Below the pieces are notes generated by a model. The model was not told the origin of the DNA. It did no database searches and worked only from the letters and a program-made list of their open reading frames with translations. A stretch of DNA of 47,817 nt, counting the filler, from Stramenopiles sp. TOSAG23-2 (Eukaryota), in NCBI GenBank assembly GCA_900128395.1. It is 2 parts of 2 records of this genome, joined end to end, with 100 filler letters (N's around TTAATTAATTAA, not from the genome) between each part and the next. Parts side by side here need not be neighbours in the genome. Positions count along the whole stretch, not along the records: positions 1 to 23,882 come from LT649478.1; 1 more part is not named here. One strand, written 5' to 3'. The first letter of the stretch is position 1. Each line of letters starts with the position of its first letter. Below, in pieces: positions 4,522 to 16,455 of the stretch. Both the position numbers and the translations under genes were made by a program.

Positions 4522-4892
4522 ATATTTATATTTTTATACCATGCATATTATGTTATATGTTGCGAAACAATTACCAGGTAGGATAATAAAAAGAAAAAAA
4601 ATATATAAAAAAGGGTTGTTGTTTTTAAAACAAATAATATACATATACTTGTAAAATATTTTTCCATATATATTTATATATAGGCATACTGTACTTATTA
4701 GTTATTAGAAAATATTATTCTACTTATAGTAAGAAATTAATATGGTTTTTATATGATATTACAACCAACACAACAAATCTCAAAACAGTATATAATGACC
4801 GATTCTCTCACATATACATATCTCCTCCTTTCACACACACACCCTATACATCATTTTTAAATATATATTTTTAAATATATTTTATCATATAT

Positions 4893-7800
4893 TTATAATG
4901 AATCTATTGTTGCAACAATCTTTTGCATACGCTTTTTTTTCTTCTTTGTAGATCTCAGGAAATCTTTTTCTTCATATTTTTTCTTCCTACGTTTTGTATT
5001 TAATGATAAGAAACTTTGTATTTTCCCTTCATCTAAAGTTCCTACATCACCAATAATAGAACGATTTCTAGAAGAAGAAGAAACGCTTCTTGATTTTCGT
5101 TTCAATAACTTTTTTCCTGATACTTGTTGTTGTTGCTTTTTTCGAAGTGCTTTTGTATTATTGCCAACTATAGTGGATTTAAAATTCATACCATCATTTG
5201 ACAATTTTTTCTTTATTACGACTTCTTCCCAACGAACACACCCATCTTTGCTTATAGATGTAATACGCCATTTAGTACCATCGTTCTCTATTGTTTCCAT
5301 CCCGACATATTCAAGTTCTTCCTCCTCGTCTTCCTTTCTCTTCTTGTTTTGTTTCTTCGCTGAGGCCGACATATCGTCATCTGATCTTTTTCTTTTTTTG
5401 ATATCGGTCTCTATTGTTTCCATCCCGACATATTCAAGTTCTTCCTCCTCGTCTTCCTTTCTCTTCTTGTTTTGTTTCTTCGCTGAGGCCGACATATCGT
5501 CATCTGATCTTTTTCTTTTTTTGATATCGGATTTTATAGTTCTTCCATTTTTATCATTCGATGATGATAAAATACCGTGTTTTTTAGGTGTTTTCAATGA
5601 ACTACCTGCACCGTGTTTGTGAAGCGGGGCGTTTGAAGCTAAACTTGCGCCAGCTCTTAAATTCGCAATATTATTATTATTATTGTTGTTTATGTTCTTA
5701 TTATTACTATTGTTATTAATGTTCATATTATCCTTTCGTTTTTTTTGTATTTTTTGACGTTTTCGTTTTTCTTGAACTTTTTGACGTTTTAATAATAACA
5801 CATCAGGGGATAATGATGGACAATCACTGGATTCATGTCCAATTTTCTTACAAAAATAACATGCTACAGCTGGTACAACTACTGTTTCTTTCGCGCTTAT
5901 AATACATTTACTAAAAAGACTTGGGCAATCGCTGGATGTATGCCCATTTTTTTTGCAAAAATACTGGTACAACTACTGTTTCTTTCGCGCTTATAATACA
6001 TTTACTAAAAAGACTTGGGCAATCGCTGGATGTATGCCCATTTTTTTTGCAAAAATAACATACCAATGTTGTTGTTTTTGCTGTCATTCCCCCTGCAAAT
6101 ACTTCTTTTTTCTCATCAATGATAAGAATAGAATCTTTCAGTTTTTTCTTCTTTTTTATTACTTCTTTCCAATTAAGCTTAAGTCCATTATCAGTTATTG
6201 ATATTATTCGCCATGTTGCACCTTTTTCATCTAGGACCTCTTTGCCAACATAGTCACCATCTTCTTCGTCATCAATAATATCATTTGTATTACCTGCACT
6301 GTGTTTGTGACGCGGGGTGTATGATGCTAAACTTGCACCAGGTCTTAAATTTGCATTCTTATTATTCTTTTTACTTGCAGCGTGTTTCTGGAGCGAAGCG
6401 TATTTATTTTCTGTTGGAAGGTGTGTATATAAGTTATTGTTGTTATTACCCTTTTCTTTTTTTTGTTGAAGAGATAATTTTTTGGCACTTTTAGTTTTTA
6501 TTGCTTCATCTCGTTGCTCCGCTAATATTACTTGGTGTTTCATCTTTTCTTCATCTGCCTTCTTCTTCTTCTCTTCCATTAAATCTTTTTTCGCTCGTTG
6601 CTCCGCTAATACTACTTGGAGTTTCATCTTTTCTTCATCTGCCTTCTTCTTCTTCTTTTCCATTAAATCTTTTTTCGCTCGTTGCTCCGCTAATATTACT
6701 TGAAGTTTCATCTTTTCTTCATCTGCCTTCTTCTTCTTCTCTTCCATTAAATCTTTTTTCGCTCGTTGCTCCGCTAATATTACTTGAAGTTTCATCTTTT
6801 CTTCATCTGCCTTCTTCTTCTTCTCTTCCATTAAATCTTTTTTCACTCGCAATGATCGACAACGTTTGGCCAATCGCATGAACTCACGCCCAATAAAACA
6901 TTTTCGCATGTTCTTAACCTGTTTTTTTAATCCCTTTAAATAAGGAGACATTATATTGTTCCATGCATCATTTTCGATATGAAGCTTTTTTAAATAATAT
7001 TTAAACTGTCTTTCTAATACTATTCTTTCTTTTTTCTCTTTCACTTCCCTTTCTTCAGTTGTGAGACGACGTGGTATAATTCTTTGTTTTTGTGCATTAT
7101 AATACTCTTCTAGCTCAATTTTCATCCTCTTAATTTCCACATTAAGCAGTTCTGACGTTTTTGGCATTTGTTTATCAATACTTGCACCGTGTTCTCCAAT
7201 ACCTGCACCAGGTTTGTGAAGCGGAGTGCATGATGCTAACTGTCTCTTCAGCTTTAGATATTCTCTTTGTGTTGTTTTGAATGAACTACCTGCACCTTCT
7301 TTGTTACGCGGAGTGTATAATGCTAAACTTGCATCAGGTCTTAAATTTGCCTTTTTATTATTCTTTTTACTTGCACCATCTTTCTGGAGCAAAGCGTATT
7401 TATTTTCTGTTGGATGGTGTGTATATAAGTTATTATTGTTATTACCCTTTCGTTTTTTTTGAAGGGATAATTTTTTGACACTTTTAGTTTTTATTGCTAA
7501 TCTTGCACCAGTATCTTCACACGCTTGGGTTCTCTTCTTTTTTTCAGCAAAAGTTCTTTCCCGTTTCTCTTCAACTTTTTGACGTTTTGGTAATACCACA
7601 CGAGATAATTTTTTGACGCTTTTAGTATTTATTACTCGCTTTTTACTGCGAGCGCTTCTTACTTCCTCGCAAGTAGGATTATTCCAAAAATTTTTATATT
7701 CTTCATGACGTATTAACTCCTTTCTCGTTTCAAGATCTAAAACACTCGTACTATGGAATTTCTTTTCTTGTAAATCCTTTTTATCCATTTTTTTCAATAC

Positions 7801-8844
7801 TAGACGACCTCGCTTCTCATAAATTGTTGCATCCTTACTATATACAACGTTTTTTACGTGATTGACAAGAGATTTTACAGATTTGAAGTTATATGTATCA
7901 CAGAAACCTTTTTTCCTTTTGAATAAGTTTTTGATTTTTTTTTGTTTGCAATAAGACCGAATTACACTTTCGATATGATTCCAAACCCAATTTTCCTCCT
8001 CTATTCCATCAAATGCTTTGGAGCGTAGCGCGTAAAAATGAGAGATGTGTTAGAGAGGATATGTACATGAAAAAAAAAAAAAAAAGACAGAGAGATATAA
8101 ATATAATAAATATATTCATGTGTTAGAGAGGACATCGTTTTTTTTTTACGTTTTAAGGGAATAAAATTACTTACGACTATTGGCAGTATTAGATTTAAAA
8201 CGATCAAATAAATTTGATTTTTGAAGTATTGGTACTATCGTCGCCCCAACAAATTTTCCCCAATTAGGAAACCATTGCTTACTTTGCTGATATGTTGTTG
8301 CCCTTTGCTCCCTAAAAGAATGAGTTAACCAAGCTTTTACTTTACCCGGCGTTAACGACACTCCTTCATATGCATGCCTTTTAAATAACAAGAGATACAA
8401 CATGACAATCGATGGAGTCCTAGAACGCCCACTTCGACAAAAATATACGATATTATCTTCCGTCAAATTTAGTAGATACATAATCGTAGCATGTTCAATA
8501 AAAAATTTCTGTGTATTTATAATATCAGTTCGATTTAGGGGCGTTTCACTTTCAGCAATTTTGGCTGAATTCTCAATCAAATGAGAAACTTTTACAGAGT
8601 ATTCGTTTCCTTCCTTTTTTTGTTTATCGACACAATTTATCATACAGTTTTTTTTAGTTTGATTGGCATGATCTCTCCTCCAACTTGGTTGCTCCGCCCA
8701 ATGTTTTGTAGTTACTATTATACGATGTGACGTTTCTGGATCAAATAACTTAAAAAATTCATTTGGATTGTGTTCGTTTATTTTACGGGTATACGTTGTT
8801 GATGTTGTTGTTGTTGTTGTGGTGGTGGTAGTAGTAGTTGCCAT
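4893..8844 (-). CDS. Spliced ~1230-aa protein: N-terminal CX5R (PTP/dual-specificity-like) phosphatase domain, Lys-rich repeats and CCHC zinc knuckles. Exons 8844-8175 and 8015-4893; frame broken by a 94-bp duplication at 5870-6057
   Basis: YFCRSGRSRT P-loop. The GT-AG intron 8174-8016 joins ...ANS-P-FDGIEEENWVW in frame to the 5911-7797 ORF. CYFCKKNGHTSSDC knuckles. Removing one 94-bp copy restores the frame into the 4893-5972 ORF. Confidence 0.8.
5285..5530. repeat. Exact 123-bp in-frame tandem duplication (41 aa)
   Basis: DIKKRKRSDDDMSASAKKQNKKRKEDEEEELEYVGMETIE occurs twice with identical DNA. Confidence 0.93.
5870..6057. repeat. Exact 94-bp tandem duplication causing a frameshift
   Basis: 5870-5963 = 5964-6057; it duplicates one zinc knuckle out of frame. 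Confidence 0.93.
6510..6845 (-). repeat. Coding minisatellite, 4 x 84 bp (AKKDLMEEKKKKADEEKMKLQVILAEQR)
   Basis: Period 84 with a few substitutions between units; coiled-coil-like peptide. Confidence 0.92.
8016..8174 (-). mobile_element. Spliceosomal intron of the repeated (Introner-like) family, copy C, with an internal duplication and AT-rich insert
   Basis: GTAAGTAATTTTATTCCCTT...TCCTCTCTAACACATCTCTCAT...ACGCTCCAAAG; phase 1; restores the ORF; similar to both CTR9 introns. Confidence 0.75.
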
Positions 8845-9095
8845 AATGAATTGCAAGAAATATATTCAAATTAATATAGAAAAAAAACTACAACCTGTTC
8901 CATGTAAGTATATTAGTATTTTCCTTTCTTAGTTAAACATATATATTTATAAATTATATAAAAAAAAGATATTACTTCGTTTATATCGATATACTATTAC
9001 CTGCATCAACAACAATGCTATTATTATAATTAATGATGCACAATCTGCACGATGCACCTTTTTCCCAGCCGCATCGCCCAATCCCGATATATTAC

Positions 9096-9269
9096 CTCTC
9101 GAAACAACTCGGGCCATTTCGCCTATGAAAGTTAAGTCTAACTTTCTGTAGTCTTATCTTTACTATAGACATAGCAAAGAAAAGACGGCCTTCACAGCCT
9201 TCACGCCTTCACCAAATTTTATATTTGATAGTAGTGCTGTTCTCATACTAACAAGTGATGTTTCGAGAG
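9096..9269. mobile_element. 174-bp MITE-like element with 11-bp TIRs and a 9-bp TSD
   Basis: CTCTCGAAACA (9096-9106) and TGTTTCGAGAG (9259-9269), flanked by ATATATTAC at 9087-9095 and 9270-9278. Confidence 0.7.
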
Positions 9270-9724
9270 ATATATTACCTGGTACTGTATACTTAGTGAA
9301 GTGCAGCTACTCTGTACTGTAAAATGTGATGGAATGTTTCAATATATAGCACATAGTTATTAGTTGTTTAGTTGTTGTTTTATTTAGTTACGGTTATAAA
9401 TAATAGTATAGCAATTGAAGAAATAAATATAAATATAATAATAAATAATTGAAAATAGTATATATATGCACATATGTATTATATTATAAGTTTATGATTT
9501 ATAGAAGCGAATATTACATTTACAAATCATCCATCCAATCATTCGTTAGATGATACCACATTGACATCCCTGATCTTCGTGTATGTATGTATCTGAAAGT
9601 TTTTTTCGAATCAAATTATACATAAATACATATATATTATAGATATATATATAGATTGTACATACAAATAATTATTAAATAATAGTAAAACATATTTATT
9701 ATTTTAATTATTTTCTAGAACAAA

Positions 9725-12421
9725 ATGGATGCGTTAGCACAATTACAAAAGGCACAAAATGCAAATAAGGCTTTAACAATGGCTGAAAAGCAGCAATTAA
9801 AGGAATTTGCAAAATTTTCCAAAGCACTAACAAGTAGTATGCCATCTCGTATGGCACGAGGGGAAGAAACTGCAAGTTCAATGAATCCAGATGTTTTTTT
9901 ATATAAAGCAGCGAATTTACAACGTCAGCGTCGACGGAAAAAAGTAGAAGCAGCAAAAGTGAAGTTACCAGCACATATACAACAAGTATTGGATTTACAA
10001 ATAACTAGAGGTAAAAGAAAAGGACAATGGAAGCCATCGAATGAGTTGAGAAACGCTTTAGGGGGTATATTACCAAAACCACAATCTGGGATCCCGGAAT
10101 CAAAATGGACTACTGCTGTTGTATTAGCTTTTTTAAGACGTCACCCTGATTTATTTCCACATACAAGAGAAGCATATCATGCGGGATCATTTTTTGTACC
10201 GGATGATATGATGTTACAGCAAGCAGCAAATGCCTTGCCACCTTTGAAAGGTAGTTGGGTAGATTTAGTTGGTAGTAGAGCTAATAATCGCTCTCAACAC
10301 GCTATTAACATTGGTGAGGCAGGTCTATGGCGTGATTGTGTAGAATTCAATGCTACTACACATGGTTATTTACCATTTTCAAATGAGGAAAGGGAAGCTC
10401 GTCAACGCAACAATAATGTATATAGTCGTGGTAGTAGTCAAAATCTTTACAGTCGTGGTAGTATGAATAATGCACAAAGTTTACCACACTTAACACAACC
10501 ACCACCACAACAACAACCATCTCGTGGTGGTATTTTTACACGTGAAGCTGAACAACGTATGAAAGAACGAATAGCAGCCGCTGCAACTAAAATAGCTCGT
10601 TTTAAAACGGATGCTGAATATTTAGAAGAAGAAAAGCGTGAAAAAAGGAGAAATAAACGGCAGGAAGAATGGAATTGGCGCATGCAAGCGTTAAAAAAAG
10701 AGTTTAAAACCAAGTCGCAGGATCCAGGAAAAGCATTTTTATTAGGGGAAAGAGTGAAAACAAAATTTCGCCGAGCTAGTGAATGGGATAGACCACGAAT
10801 AACACAAGAATATCATCCAGCTAGAATTGTTAGGCTTGGATTAGATGGCCAGTCTGTTGATATAGAATATTTAAATGGTCGAAAAGAAATAGAAAAACGA
10901 GTTTCAAAAATACATGTCGAGGCTGATATGATTGAATTTGCACGTATGTCAATAGAAATAAATAAGCGTAATTATGATAGAAAAATGAAAGCAAAAGCTA
11001 TACGAGAGGAGCAAGAAAAATTTGAAGCAGAGTTAAGATTACTTAAAGAGGCAACAAAAAGTAAAAAGAAAAAGAAGAAAAAGAAAAGCAGTAGTTCTAA
11101 TAATGAAGATGACGATGACAAAGGAGAAGACGAACGAGAAAGCAATGATGATGACGACGACGATGATGAAAGTGAGGAAATGAAAATGATGAGGCAACAA
11201 ATGTTGGAAGAACAGGCAAAAAACGCTGTGGAAGTGCAAGTAGATGAAGAGGAGGAACAAATGCGTTTACATGAAGGTCTTGATATGATTGCAAATTCAT
11301 GGTCAAAGCCTTTATCATTAAAACAAGAGCGGAAGCGTTTAAAAAGTTTCATGGAAATGAAAAAAGTTGATTTTAATACTCGTGTATGTGCCCAATCTAA
11401 TCCTAGTGTAGATACAAAAGCTTTACGAAGAGATCATACTGATCTAAGAGAAATTAAACAAAAAAGGAAGGTTGTGAAAAAAGAAAAGACAATGAATGAG
11501 TTGTTGGACGATGCTAAAAAAGCACAAGAAGCATTGGAAGCAAAAGCTCTTAATGAAGTTGGTGCTGGAGAAAAAGCAAGAGTTGTAGCTGGTGGTAAAA
11601 AAAATGAATTGATTCGTAAACAATTTGAAGAGGAACAACGAAAAAAACGTGAGCGACTTCAGAAATTGATCGACTCCGTAACAAATGCAGAAGATAATGT
11701 AGTTGCATGTATTTTAAAACATGAGGCAAACGTGTTAGATGTGCAGCATAAATGCGATGAGGCTGTTGATAAACATGCTAGGGCTGCTTTGAAAACTGAA
11801 CAAATTCATGCATTTGATGATTTAACTGAAACATTAAATAAAGGACGAAATATAAATTGTGATTTAGTAGAAGCGGTAGTGAAATGGAGAGAAGCTAAAT
11901 TAGTATTAGCAAAACATCGAGGGGAGGAAATTTTAGAATATGTAGAATATGATAAAGATTCAGATAAAGAGGCGGATGAACTAGGTGCATTGTCGGATCC
12001 AAGTGCATTACCATTTTTATGGAATGGAAATAATATATTGTTGCACATAACGAATGATTTTGATTTTTTGATTAATTGCCATCAACTCACAGAATGGTAC
12101 GGCCCAGATTTTAATTTAATAAGTAACCCTTTCATGCTGGCTGTACCAGTGTGGGAAAGGGCATCTACTCCGTTGAAAGCCACGCAAAGTGTATTGGTAA
12201 ATGGTGTACAAGTTGAAAGAATAATACCACGTCTACGTGATCGTAGCGAGCGGCAGGCAAAAGCATTAATGGCACAAAAAGCAAGGCAAAAAAAAAGTGC
12301 ATGGTGGTGGCCTGGGCACAGTATACGTCCGGCTGAATATGAACGTGTCCGTCGTGCAGAGAAAGAAATTTTTAATGAGAAAAGGAGAATTGGGTTAAAA
12401 CCCAAGGGTGTACCACGATAA
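9725..12421 (+). CDS. Hypothetical coiled-coil protein with a Tudor/SH3-like barrel and an acidic/basic low-complexity linker
   Basis: 898-aa ORF with ATG. FLLGERVKTKF...YHPARIVRL...VDIEYLNG resembles a Tudor-like domain. Confidence 0.8.
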   Translation: MDALAQLQKAQNANKALTMAEKQQLKEFAKFSKALTSSMPSRMARGEETASSMNPDVFLYKAANLQRQRRRKKVEAAKVKLPAHIQQVLDLQITRGKRKGQWKPSNELRNALGGILPKPQSGIPESKWTTAVVLAFLRRHPDLFPHTREAYHAGSFFVPDDMMLQQAANALPPLKGSWVDLVGSRANNRSQHAINIGEAGLWRDCVEFNATTHGYLPFSNEEREARQRNNNVYSRGSSQNLYSRGSMNNAQSLPHLTQPPPQQQPSRGGIFTREAEQRMKERIAAAATKIARFKTDAEYLEEEKREKRRNKRQEEWNWRMQALKKEFKTKSQDPGKAFLLGERVKTKFRRASEWDRPRITQEYHPARIVRLGLDGQSVDIEYLNGRKEIEKRVSKIHVEADMIEFARMSIEINKRNYDRKMKAKAIREEQEKFEAELRLLKEATKSKKKKKKKKSSSSNNEDDDDKGEDERESNDDDDDDDESEEMKMMRQQMLEEQAKNAVEVQVDEEEEQMRLHEGLDMIANSWSKPLSLKQERKRLKSFMEMKKVDFNTRVCAQSNPSVDTKALRRDHTDLREIKQKRKVVKKEKTMNELLDDAKKAQEALEAKALNEVGAGEKARVVAGGKKNELIRKQFEEEQRKKRERLQKLIDSVTNAEDNVVACILKHEANVLDVQHKCDEAVDKHARAALKTEQIHAFDDLTETLNKGRNINCDLVEAVVKWREAKLVLAKHRGEEILEYVEYDKDSDKEADELGALSDPSALPFLWNGNNILLHITNDFDFLINCHQLTEWYGPDFNLISNPFMLAVPVWERASTPLKATQSVLVNGVQVERIIPRLRDRSERQAKALMAQKARQKKSAWWWPGHSIRPAEYERVRRAEKEIFNEKRRIGLKPKGVPR

Positions 12422-12770
12422 TTAATACTCGTATATTACATGACGTACGAAACGTAGTACGAGTATATATATAATACGAACTACTTCGTATGTACGTACG
12501 AGTATATAAATATAATTTACGTATAAATTTCCAGTACATAATAGATCGAATTAGGGTATTTTAGATATGTTATGATAATATGATATGCATGTGATATGGC
12601 ATAGAACCTCGTTTGCATAATATTATCATACAATTAGGCCCAGAAGATTAAAATTGTATGCATACGTATGATCGTACGAGTATATATATATATATGATGA
12701 AAATATTGATATTTTTTGTTTTACTTTTTAGTCACACATACATAACTAAGTTAGATTTTAACCTTCTATC

Positions 12771-15700
12771 TTAATCACTATCATCATCGTCGTCATCATC
12801 ATCAAATAAAGCATTTACTTCCTTCTCATCCTCTTTCGAAACAGATTTCTCATCATCTGCAACTCCAGATTCCTCTAAACCACCCTCATCATCCTCATCA
12901 TCGTCGTCATCATCATCATCATCGATAAGCATCTTTTTAGAAGCTGTATCGGCAGTACCATTAGCACTATTACCACCCTTATTATCAGTTTCATCATCAT
13001 CTGAATCATCATCTGAATCCGAACCAAATAACGCTGCTTTTTGCTGTGCTTTTTCATTACCGTCGTCGTCAGAATCACTATCACTATCACTACTACTATC
13101 ACTACTATCACTAGAACTTTCACCATCAAGTTTAGGTTTTTTAACTTTTTTAACTTTCTTTTGACCTGGCTCCCGTTTCCTTTTTACTTTCTTTTTATTT
13201 TCTTCTTGAAATTTCTGTGCTTTTTCAGTCAGCTCTTGCTGCCCTTCTCTCCATTTCTTTTCTTTCTCTTCTCTTTGTTTTGCTTCTTCTAGGTCTTGCA
13301 AGCGTTTTGCCTCTGCCTCTTGCCTTTCTTTCTCCAGTTGATCCTCGCGCAATTTCTTAAATTCTGCATCACGAGCCTGTGGAGCGAAGTGTATGAATGA
13401 GTGATATGTTAGAGGGGATATCCTTTTTAGGTTTAGGGGAATAGAATTTACTCCGAAAAAAAATATACTTGTACTATAGTATGTATATATGTATGTAGGT
13501 AGAATGTGTGTGTGTGCGTGTGTGTGTCAAGAACTTGGTGCAAGATTAGCATCATATGCTCCGCTTCACAAACACGGTGCAGGTTAGTTGCAGGTTGGTT
13601 ACTCACTTCTTTGCTTTTCATAGCAGTAACTAATGCACCTTCAAGGTGTTTTAAATGATCAGTACATTTTCGAACAAATTGTTCCGCACTTGCTTTTTCT
13701 TTTTCATCAATATCCACCCCGCCTACTTTAATATAAAATTGGCGGTATTTTAGCGCACTAGCAAAGTAAGATTTCATACGTTTTAATTGCATAACTTTAT
13801 CATCCAACGAAATGACATTACTAAATTTTGCATACATATCAGCAGCAATGATGCACATTATTGAAGAAAGTTCATACCAATGGTCTACCACTTCAGGAAA
13901 TAAACGCACAGCACGTTGTAACACTTTTAAACATTCTGCATTCATACCGGCCACTTTGTAAGCAGCTGCTAAGTACGATAAATGCAACCCGGCATCACCC
14001 GGTCCAAACGATTGTATACAGGTTTGAAATAATTGTATTGCGGCAGGGTATTTTTTTAATTGGATTTGAATTTTGGCTAAATTAATAGCAGGATCTGGGG
14101 CATCAAATGCTGAATCGCGAACTTTCGTAAATATATCTCTTGCATATGTAAGATGCCCACGTTCTGCTAATACCATTCCAATGCCATTAGCTGCGTATAT
14201 ATTTGAATCGTCTCTTTGCAATACCCTTTTATATATTTTCAGTGCAAAATTTAAATGATCCTGCTTCTTTCTACCTTCACTAATCATTGCCGTTTCAAAT
14301 TCAATATTTGCCAACGATAGTTGAGCATATACATCTCTTCTACCTGATTTTTGCTGCAAAGATGTGAATAGTTTTTTCGCACCATCCATATCACCTGACT
14401 CTAAGCGAATGTTAGCCAAGACATTGACCGCTTTATTTGATGCACTCTCGTCGTAGCTATTTGTGACCTGTCGTGGAGTGTAGCGTATGAGATGAGTGAT
14501 GTGTGTTAGAGAGGTTATCTTTTTATAGGTTCAGGGGAATAGAATTTACTTACAGCTTTTTTCAAATATTCGACTGCTTCCGTATGCATGTTTCTTTCAC
14601 GGTATATTTGGCCCAGGCATACGTAGGATTCTCCGTACCCTGGGAAATGTTTGACAATTCCAAGATGCAAACGTTCTGCGCGAATACGATCACCAGTTTG
14701 CTCTAAATATAATGCAACATTAAATGTTAATGTTATATTTGATTTCTCATACAAATAATTACTGGATCCCTCCTTTAGAAGATCAATAAATATTTCATTA
14801 TCATCATCGTTGCTACTACTACTATTATTATCACTATCACCGTCTTTTTTGCTTAACTTTAATGCTTTGATAAATTCTTTTCTTGCATTTTTAAAATCAC
14901 CAAGTTTTTGATACAGCACGGCAACATTATTTAAAAGATCAGGCGTTGGTTTTTTACCATGAACTTCTGTCATAGCTTTAATACTACGTTTGTATAATTT
15001 CAATGCTTCTTTTTTTGAAGCATCACTGCCTTGCGAACGATACAAGTTGCCTAATTCCAATCGTGCCTCATAATCAACATTGTCCAATTCGATTACCTTT
15101 TGTAAATATTTGATTGCTGCGGCAGATTTTTTTAAACTTGATTTATTTGCATATATGCTACCAAGTACAAGTAATAACTCTTTGCAACTAGGATTTTTTG
15201 CCAATCCTTTCTCAAAATAACTTAATGCATTTTTCATATCTTTATTACGCAACGCCATTTGACCTAATCCCATTTGTAATGCTGGATTAAATAATAATTC
15301 CTGATTGCTTTTAAAATTATTTCTTGCTAATTTATAAAATTTAGATGCTTGTTCAAAATTGTTTTCTTTGTGGTACGTACGTGCCATTAAAAGATAAGCC
15401 TGCCCTTTAACTTCAACATTCGCAGTACGCTCTACCGAGCGTGAACATAATTCAATTACTTTATTGTATCTCATTTTCTTGAAGAAATGATCGGCTAAAC
15501 CATTTAAAGTTGCAGCTAAATTTGGATTTTGACGATGTGCGTTGAACATTTTCGTCACATTCTTCTTCACCCTATGCGCATCTTTTGCGCCTCGTTCGTT
15601 ATCCATTTCCATCATCGCTAAAGCGGTCAATGCATGTGCATTGTTGACGTCCAACGTAAGAGCTCGTTGGTAACATTTTTTCGCCATTTCCAAATTACTC

Positions 15701-16416
15701 ATTTTTAAATAACAATGTCCTAAGCATACACGTACATCTGGTGCACAATGTGGATAATTCGATAAAATTTTCGAATAACATTTCGATGCATGTTTAAAAT
15801 CTCCTTGAAGGAATTGAATAGCACCAAGACCTAAATTAGCAGCATAACTTTGACCTTGTGTAACATCCATAGCAGCATTGAAATTTTCACGAGCTGAACG
15901 GTAATTACTAGTGCCTGTATTTGCATATAAAGCTAAGTAGCCTTTTGCAATCCATATAAGTTCACTATCTGTTTCTAAAGCTGACATTTCGTCCTGTAAC
16001 AAATTAGCAGCCTCTCCAAAGCATTGGTTTGCTTTGTTAAAATAGTCTTCTACCACATCACTTGACAAATTTTCTTCCTTTGATTTCCTATATTGCTCCG
16101 TATAATACGAACCGTGTGTTATAACAAGCAATGCTTTACCTTTACGAGCCTCCGTCCTCTCTGCCTCCGTATTCTTGATTTGTTGTGTTTTTGCAACTTG
16201 ATCTGCTTCCTTCAACACATCTAAAGCTGCGTCATTATTACCAAGTTGAAAATATTGTATTGCAAAATTTGCCCAAACAGCCAATGCTGGTACTTCTACT
16301 TTCAAAAGCTTCAACACCCCATCTACATTTTGTTCCATATCGTCCCTAAAGATATGTACAATCTTATTATTCTTTAAAGGTATTTGAATACCATGATCTT
16401 GAAACGAATTGGCCAT
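12771..16416 (-). CDS. CTR9: PAF1 complex subunit CTR9 (TPR protein); exons 16416-14554, 14467-13607 and 13376-12771 (~1109 aa)
   Basis: N-terminal IQIPL, many TPRs, the conserved NIYAANGIGMVLAERG...ARDIFTKVRD block and an acidic tail. Two phase-0 GT-AG introns join the three ORFs in frame (KKA|VTNS; KSKE|ARDAEF). Confidence 0.9.
13377..13606 (-). mobile_element. CTR9 intron 2: Introner-like copy B carrying a nested 145-nt insert (13454-13598)
   Basis: GT-GAGTAA-[insert]-GAGTAA-ATTCTATTCCCCTAAACC...CCCCTCTAACATATCACTCAT...CGCTCCACAG. Confidence 0.78.
13534..13587 (+). repeat. ~50-nt dispersed repeat core, also present inverted at 5604, 6292, 7201 and 7288 (fragments at 7181, 7495)
   Basis: 13561-13584 is the exact reverse complement of 5604-5627 (24/24). 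The core matches 43/49 with the copy at 6292. Confidence 0.85.
14468..14553 (-). mobile_element. CTR9 intron 1: Introner-like copy A (86 nt, apparently uninterrupted)
   Basis: GTAAGTAAATTCTATTCCCCTGAACCTATAAAAAGATAACCTCTCTAACACACATCACTCATCTCATACGCTACACTCCACGACAG; phase 0; restores the ORF. Confidence 0.8.
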
Positions 16417-16455
16417 ATTGATAAGCAATCCGTTTATAGATATACGTCGTTATTG

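Follow-up and report, generated by a model that had tools for sequence, protein, structure and literature searches.

Mirtrons are intron-derived regulatory RNAs that are released from a hairpin precursor. The Rickettsia palindromic elements (RPEs), which are about 150 bp long, fall into ten families, and nearly half of the 44 insertions in R. conorii are in-frame fusions (PMC10969869). Introner elements are described as transposons that create introns (PMC12130899). The capture of filler DNA, as in insertions of mitochondrial DNA into the nucleus (numts), generates target duplications, with overhangs of up to 11 bases (PMC2567098). In a 47,817-nt stretch of DNA of Stramenopiles sp. TOSAG23-2 (assembly GCA_900128395.1), from here on called the window, a sequence of about 50 nt lies antisense in the first intron of a CTR9 homologue and recurs in frame, as a peptide repeat, in a nearby gene for a phosphatase/zinc-knuckle protein (the host gene). 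We propose, with a probability of about one half, that the copies of this sequence (the module) are fragments of a repeat-rich orphan coding tail, which were duplicated within the gene and copied elsewhere by break-associated insertion.

The copy in the CTR9 intron (13522..13593) is in the module sense on the + strand and thus antisense to CTR9; its core (13533-13584) reads CQELGARLASYAPLHKHGAG followed by a stop codon, and its end is partly duplicated over 11 nt (13578-13588 and 13589-13599). The core is in inverted-repeat pairing with three coding copies of the host gene 6-8 kb away, namely 6292-6343 (52 nt, 87%), 5604-5652 (49 nt, 88%) and 7201-7239 (39 nt, 87%), and a fourth arm pairs 13524-13551 with 7495-7522 (28 nt, 86%). 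When the region 13520-13610 was compared with the window by BLASTN, matches were obtained at 5604 (45 nt, 88.9%), 6292 (49 nt, 87.8%, 43/49), 7201 (39 nt, 87.2%, 34/39), 7288 (46 nt, 82.6%) and 7495 (16/16), with E-values from 3e-9 to 0.012. No further module copy was found by BLASTN in the 47.8 kb, the remaining matches being only 10-14 nt long (E 0.7-2.9), and the 35-nt core with up to 3 mismatches had no match in 100 shuffles of the window.

The coding copies are all on the minus strand. Those at 5604..5652 (ANLRAGASLASNAPLHKHGAG), 6292..6343 (ANLRPGASLASYTPRHKHSAG, the end of a unit of about 220 nt at 6286-6505) and 7288..7333 (ANLRPDASLALYTPRNKEGAG) belong to a subtype that we call type A; at 7201..7239 the copy is shortened (QLASCTPLHKPGAG) and has the partial repeat IGEHGAS after it; and 7495..7552 (AEKKKRTQACEDTGARLA) is a truncated copy of a second subtype, type B, together with its upstream flank, cut by the start of the 220-nt unit. 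The intronic copy is of type B. The initial annotation of this DNA had claimed that a ~50-nt element of the CTR9 intron is an antisense copy of an in-frame repeat of the host gene; this was borne out, with five coding copies matched. Its identity counts of 43/49, 34/39 and 16/16 were recovered by BLASTN, and 24/24 at 5604 was seen in the alignment of the copies. The peptides it gave were also correct: for the intron's + strand, LGARLASYAPLHKHGAG and a stop; for the frame of the host gene, GASLASNAPLHKHGAG, GASLASYTPRHKHSAG, LASCTPLHKPGAG and DASLALYTPRNKEGAG.

The CTR9 homologue (12771..16449, minus strand) has three exons within this span, TPR exons being followed by an acidic/lysine-rich tail. 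It was identified by its match to solved CTR9 structures (E 3e-50) and to Pfam TPR families. Data on splicing and transcription come from contigs of the RNA runs X14, X17 and X18 and of the DNA run X2. Intron 1 (13377..13606, minus strand, 230 nt, GT..AG) is a real intron that is removed, because RNA contigs join 13375 to 13606 (joint 13375>13606, cut +1, 230 nt skipped) in 3/3 RNA runs and the DNA run does not. The intronic module copy therefore sits inside sequence that is spliced out of the RNA, and both genes are on the minus strand with the copies inverted, as had been annotated. Intron 2 (14468..14553, minus strand, 86 nt) is spliced in X17 and X18 (joint 14465>14552, cut +2).

The host gene (4893..8844, minus strand) comprises exon 1 (8844-8175), an intron of 159 nt (8016-8174) that is spliced in X14 (joint 8015>8175), and a long exon that extends to the stop at 4893. 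Exon 1 has a weak dual-specificity-phosphatase match (E 3e-4, under the Pfam cut-off), the long exon codes for two zinc knuckles of the CCHC type and is rich in internal repeats, and one database allele (P0001) is a single unbroken open reading frame (ORF) across the gene. In a phmmer search of P0001 against 1.84 billion representatives, the only relatives of the tail found were fragments of the gene itself and generic zinc-knuckle matches: the 38 matches at E up to 0.001 consisted of 4 own-gene fragments (P0002, P0005, P0011 and P0013, 87-91% identical to P0001) and 34 proteins matching on the zinc-knuckle stretch only.

The coding copies are transcribed and their reading frame is mostly kept, since RNA contigs cover the copies at 5604 (X17 record 8), 7201 (X14 record 1, X18 record 14) and 7288 (X14 record 1, X17 record 10, X18 record 14), and since the indel variants of the host exon are +9, -6 and -6, the sole exception being +1 in a divergent contig. 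The case of an unexpressed host ORF region, which the initial annotation had named as speaking against its proposal, does not apply at these three sites. Between host alleles the motif varies in its amino acids (HKHGAG/HKHSAG in two different copies, YTPRH/YTLRH and HKH/HQH), and no sign of strong constraint on it was seen in these alignments.

Internal repeats of the host gene include a 103-nt unit present three times and units of 180 nt and 46 nt that combine into a repeat of about 220 nt (6286-6505 is similar to 7282-7498). The module copies are embedded in these internal duplications of 103-220 nt and are parts of them, not separate insertions. The number of repeats differs among alleles (P0001 and P0006 versus the window), and P0006 is without the entire middle part; the tail of the gene is highly recombinogenic. 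Tandem coding repeats of 84 nt (28 residues) and 123 nt are found at 6426-6929 and 5280-5525 of the window, and their copy number in P0001, P0006 and P0008 differs from that in the window.

A perfect tandem duplication of 94 nt (5870..6057, minus strand) causes a frameshift of the host gene in the window assembly only; the unit is single-copy in L002, in a DNA contig (X2 record 22) and in the database alleles P0001-P0003. The duplication is either an artefact of assembly or amplification or a rare null allele. A canonical intron as its explanation was ruled out, the unit being without AGGT. In L002 there is an in-frame stop at about position 790 (..SPDVVL*KRQKV..) where other alleles have L; perhaps some of the population can do without part of this tail, or else the contig contains an error.

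The consensus of the module is ANLRxGASLASYAPLHKHGAG, and the module is bounded by near-identical words, GGTGCA(A/G)G, 39 nt apart. The two subtypes are distinguished by the upstream flank, ANLR.. in type A and ..KKKRxQxCxxxGA.. in type B. At a second intronic location, in a gene for an MFS transporter described below, two copies follow one another, the first being of type B and the second of type A. The CTR9 copy is closest to the type B copy of the MFS gene (55/59 core columns, versus 41-47/59 for host copies), and for the type A copy of the MFS gene the best match is the host copy at 5604 (52/59). The end of the module tends toward local reduplication in the CTR9, STAND-NTPase/WD40 and 7201 copies. 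Together with the bounding words, this gives the module the look of a slippage-prone coding repeat. No terminal inverted repeats were found at the ends of the blocks, and the module copies showed no intrinsic fold beyond that of shuffled sequences (z 0.01, 0.62, -0.45 and 1.02). A search of 4800-14600 against Rfam with a permissive threshold gave no family above threshold; the sub-threshold matches to sR52 (25 bits versus a gathering score of 50) and SCARNA7 (23 versus 65 bits) were taken as chance.

An exact-pattern scan of metagenome contigs revealed 9 loci, which fall into four places: two are in the host gene (L001, L002), four in the CTR9 intron (L004, L005, L006, L009), two in the MFS intron (L003, L008) and one in a STAND-NTPase/WD40 gene (L007). 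When a motif profile was run against 5.8 billion proteins, 8 matches remained among 7,536 candidates, six host alleles plus P0004 and P0007. These cover the three places with an open frame (host gene, MFS intron and STAND-NTPase/WD40 gene), not the CTR9 intron. The profile had no match among short proteins, and two patterns had 0 matches in viral contigs. The module is thus of low copy number, with four loci, a count based on the one contig scan and the protein searches, which diverged copies may escape. The GC content of L003, L007 and L008 is 0.33-0.34, as compared with 0.345 for the window, whose DNA is AT-rich and eukaryotic (about 0.3-0.4 along its length); the three loci occur in the same metagenomes as the host-gene and CTR9 contigs.

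L003 and L008 encode an MFS transporter (Pfam MFS_1, 9e-22) with an intron that begins GTAAGTATAC and that contains, 17 bases on, about 200 nt of module sequence (about 2.5 tandem modules) antisense to the transporter gene. In the module sense it reads GAGSSAEKKKRAQSCQEAGASLAS, a stop and APLHKHGAGRNNHANFRAGVSLGSYAPLHKYGAG. L003 606-663 corresponds to 7552-7495 of the window (86%) and L003 700-773 to 5675-5602 (86%). The pair of type B and type A copies is in coding order and retains host-specific flanking codons (AEKKKR..QxC..), by which the MFS copy resembles a fragment of host-like coding sequence and not a discrete element with its own ends. The antisense frame across this intron (L003 453-789) is open over 85 residues in P0004 and contains a single TAA in L003 and L008; a frame open in one allele and stopped in the other would fit a young, coding-derived fragment.

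L007 encodes a STAND NTPase of the NPHP3_N type, with WD40 repeats after it, and carries NSARFASYDPLHKHGAGKSHGAG in frame. Its copy is 87% identical to the CTR9 intron copy over 47 nt (BLASTN, E 3e-10), and upstream of the searched pattern 18/25 bases also agree with the intron copy, as counted by hand from the alignment. The stretch of 35 residues that bears the motif in L007/P0007 is a lineage-specific in-frame insertion in the variable linker of an unrelated protein, since the homologues P0009 and P0010 have the conserved blocks on both sides and lack the stretch between them. Between the NTPase and WD40 parts L007 has an in-frame TAA (1855-1857), inside a block conserved with P0009; this stop either marks a nonsense allele or a readthrough site or is an error, and a 21-nt intron at this place was ruled out by the conserved block.

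The initial annotation had asked whether the motif occurs in frame in other unrelated proteins and had allowed for its being confined to two loci. It does occur in one such protein (L007/P0007), found in both the metagenome and the protein scans, and with the MFS intron and the STAND-NTPase/WD40 gene it is not confined. A one-off local inverted capture between two neighbouring genes, or a chance resemblance, would agree with the fact that within the window the sequence occurs in these two genes only. The local capture is refuted by the two loci outside the window, and chance is contradicted by the BLASTN match of L007, by its agreement upstream of the pattern and by the empty shuffles, so that we regard this explanation as having hardly any probability left.

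The introns of the host gene and of the CTR9 homologue resemble each other. Those at 14468-14553, 13377-13455 and 8016-8174 (about 80 nt) share a consensus start, GTAAGTAAATTCTATTCCCC, and an extended branch site, ATATCCYCTCTAACA; the extended branch-site word ATRTCCYCTCTAACA occurs four times in the window, where 0.23 are expected, and is found in the host intron and in both CTR9 introns. CTR9 intron 2 resembles the final 77 nt of intron 1. The pattern GTAAGTAAWTYTATTCCC was dropped as a descriptor of the family, since it differs from intron 2 at one base. Matches around 13415 were seen in 15 contigs of the DNA metagenome X2, and 9 contigs diverge from the window at 13452, which suggests an intron family that is spread through many genes in an introner-like manner and whose sequence is distinct from the module.

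Within intron 1 the foreign block (13454..13598, minus strand, 145 nt) consists of the module, (CA)n, a TA-rich sequence and a T8 run, and it is flanked by two copies of GAGTAA (13604-13599 and 13453-13448). With the paralogous intron 2 as a stand-in for the empty site, intron 1 would be a normal family intron plus a 145-nt block at about +8 with flanking 6-nt direct repeats, because the 79 nt that remain once the 151 nt separating the GAGTAA copies are removed align with intron 2 at 70 identical columns of 86. The module block of L003 lies between GTGTAAGTATAC and GTTTAAGTAGAC, which are 10/12 identical. The flanking repeats of both introns coincide with the splice-site consensus, and in both the foreign block begins 8-17 nt behind the 5' splice site. 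Such flanking direct repeats may point to insertion at a staggered break.

Among the described systems, filler-DNA or fragment capture of the numt type (PMC2567098) is the closest fit. The likeness lies in arbitrary boundaries, in copying from sequence elsewhere in the genome, in low copy number, in the presence in non-coding DNA and in putative short target duplications of the size expected of a staggered break. The present case differs in that three or more captures would all involve one module family, that the source would be a nuclear coding repeat instead of organelle DNA, that two captures lie behind a 5' splice site in the same orientation and that one is in frame in an exon. With introners (PMC12130899) the module shares the repeated occurrence in introns beside a splice site and the flanking direct repeats, and the surrounding introns do form a look-alike family of about 80 nt; but the module makes up 72 nt of a 230-nt intron, was apparently added to a complete intron of the family type, supplies no splice sites and is carried by only two intronic loci.

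We explain these findings as follows. The ~50-nt sequence would be one period of a coding repeat module in the orphan, repetitive and fast-varying tail of the host gene, where it would have multiplied by unequal recombination and segmental duplication. Coding fragments of varied length would then have been copied to at least three other places: as 72 nt, antisense, into CTR9 intron 1; as about 200 nt (2.5 modules), antisense, into the MFS intron; and as about 50-70 nt, in sense and in frame, into the variable linker of the STAND-NTPase/WD40 protein. The intronic blocks would have been inserted at a staggered break, perhaps by capture of filler DNA or of complementary DNA. The intronic copies would be passengers that are removed by splicing, and the coding copies would be translated within low-complexity linkers. 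What was observed directly is the copies and where they lie, the splicing, the transcription of the host exon and the lack of the stretch in homologues of the STAND-NTPase/WD40 protein; the direction from gene to intron, the mechanism of insertion and the lack of function are what we infer.

Several findings weigh against this explanation. The two intronic copies agree with each other in 55/59 columns as opposed to 41-49/59 with any host copy, and they have in common the flank GTCAAGAA, of which the host retains only a diverged form; their greater mutual likeness could reflect an independent source element or copying from intron to intron. An intact type B module was found in none of the host alleles seen, and the supposed source is hypothetical for this reason. 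No empty-site allele was present among the five CTR9 sequences, all of which carry the insert. The host ORF is broken in 2/8 alleles (window, L001, L002, P0001-P0003, P0005 and P0006), by the frameshift in the window and by the stop in L002. The repeat that flanks the L003 block overlaps a possible partial third module, which makes its reading as a target duplication uncertain. The assignment of L003, L007 and L008 to the species of the window was made only from GC content and the shared metagenomes. Finally, each of the two insertions in introns is antisense and lies just downstream of a 5' splice site whose core is duplicated, which passive capture does not predict; the position hints at a target preference, two cases not being significant.

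These points bear on the question whether the module is a mobile element, short and non-autonomous, that would be the equivalent of RPEs or introners in a eukaryote and that is translated in sense and spliced away in antisense near a 5' splice site, the copies in the host gene being old insertions that were amplified afterwards. This would account for the occurrence in four unrelated genomic contexts, for the lineage-specific in-frame insertion in an unrelated protein, for the direct repeats found on either side of each intronic block, with one kind of target (GTRAGTA) in both cases, for the 93% identity of the intronic copies over 59-61 nt, which is nearer than that of either to any host copy, and for the intron copy being a mosaic of states from different host copies. 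Yet only four loci were found in the metagenome and protein collections, and two scans of viral contigs were empty; the extent of the copies varies (about 50, 72 and 200 nt) and with it their ends; neither terminal inverted repeats nor a palindrome nor a fold was seen, and nothing in Rfam reached the threshold; the host copies lie within larger internal duplications; and the MFS copy has host-specific flanking codons and two subtypes in coding order. We regard the copies as fragments and not as a discrete mobile element because their ends vary, they have no inverted termini and no fold, and the MFS copy has host-specific flanks; a mobile element is an unlikely explanation.

The initial annotation had offered as one option a dispersed element that is exonised into protein, analogous to RPEs, and had seen in the intron copy a consensus-like source. 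The first idea holds insofar as the module occurs elsewhere and once in frame in an unrelated protein. The analogy to RPEs did not fit, given four loci, ragged ends, the lack of terminal inverted repeats and of a fold, and host copies inside larger duplications. As to the second, the mosaic is real, and it agrees equally well with descent from an older intact module as with a master element. Compared with RPEs as in-frame insertions of miniature inverted-repeat transposable elements (PMC10969869), the module is likewise a short repeat that encodes a conserved peptide, in frame in unrelated proteins and in a variable, surface-type region; but it is found in a eukaryote, is non-palindromic and without fold, has two protein hosts, four loci and varying ends, and owes most of its copies to duplication inside one gene.

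It would also be conceivable, and we think rather improbable, that the module is the core of a small, unrecognised insertion element that targets and duplicates 5' splice-site DNA (GTRAGTA) and does no harm whichever way it lands: in antisense it would be excised along with the intron, and in sense its open frame would be translated into a linker peptide. Its antisense copies in introns might, as well or alternatively, give rise to RNAs that pair with the host mRNA.

An antisense RNA was the other option of the initial annotation, which stated that the excised RNA of the CTR9 intron would be complementary to at least four sites of the host mRNA. This complementarity is present. For duplexes of the intron copy with the host mRNA, energies of -86.5 (5604), -76.7 (6292), -69.0 (7201) and -68.6 (7288) kcal/mol were predicted, with a weaker duplex of -38.2 kcal/mol at 7495, as compared with shuffled means of -21 to -27. 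The excised CTR9 or MFS intron might accordingly pair with 4-5 sites of the host mRNA, directly or after conversion to small RNAs, and would then couple the output of the phosphatase/zinc-knuckle gene to the transcription of the intron-bearing genes. In keeping with such a regulator, 2/2 intronic copies run antisense to the gene in which they reside and are hence complementary to the host mRNA, and these two resemble each other more than they resemble the coding copies. The copy in CTR9 is fixed, intron 1 being unvarying in 5/5 CTR9 sequences (window, L004, L005, L006, L009), but this says nothing on selection because the entire 311-nt region around the copy is without differences among the window, L005, L006 and L009, and not the element alone.

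Moreover, the complementarity is an automatic result of common descent, and the orientation may just reflect selection against the donor-like CAG|GTA with which every module, read in sense, ends. Neither a hairpin nor any other structure was seen in the element (z 0.01), the fold of the whole CTR9 intron 1 having a z of -1.98. The depth of X14 and X18 over 13388-13791 is explained by the exon part of spliced contigs, and none of the contigs from the three RNA runs requires the intron for its depth, although contigs cannot prove the absence of an intron-derived RNA. Among the differences between the intronic copies are a stop codon and indels, as between the MFS alleles P0004 and L003, and such changes are typical of sequence under no constraint. 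Mirtrons and other intron-derived regulatory RNAs have in common with the module a place in a spliced intron and complementarity to the mRNA of another gene; here there is no hairpin precursor, and descent explains the complementarity. A role as antisense RNA appears physically possible and is without support; we consider it very unlikely.

Between the host gene and the CTR9 homologue lies an ORF of 898 residues (9725-12421, + strand), which is without Pfam match at E 0.01 and is covered by RNA and DNA contigs.

If the origin from the coding tail of the host gene is correct, the module is a small and clean example of how pieces of repeat-rich, fast-evolving coding sequence are scattered: introns would absorb such pieces, and an unrelated protein can gain a linker peptide from them. 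It would be useful as an anecdote of how proteins and introns evolve in a protist, with no new mechanism. Should insertions just behind a 5' splice site and flanked by duplicated splice-site cores recur, they would indicate a hotspot of breakage or insertion at splice-site DNA, or a mobile element with that target.

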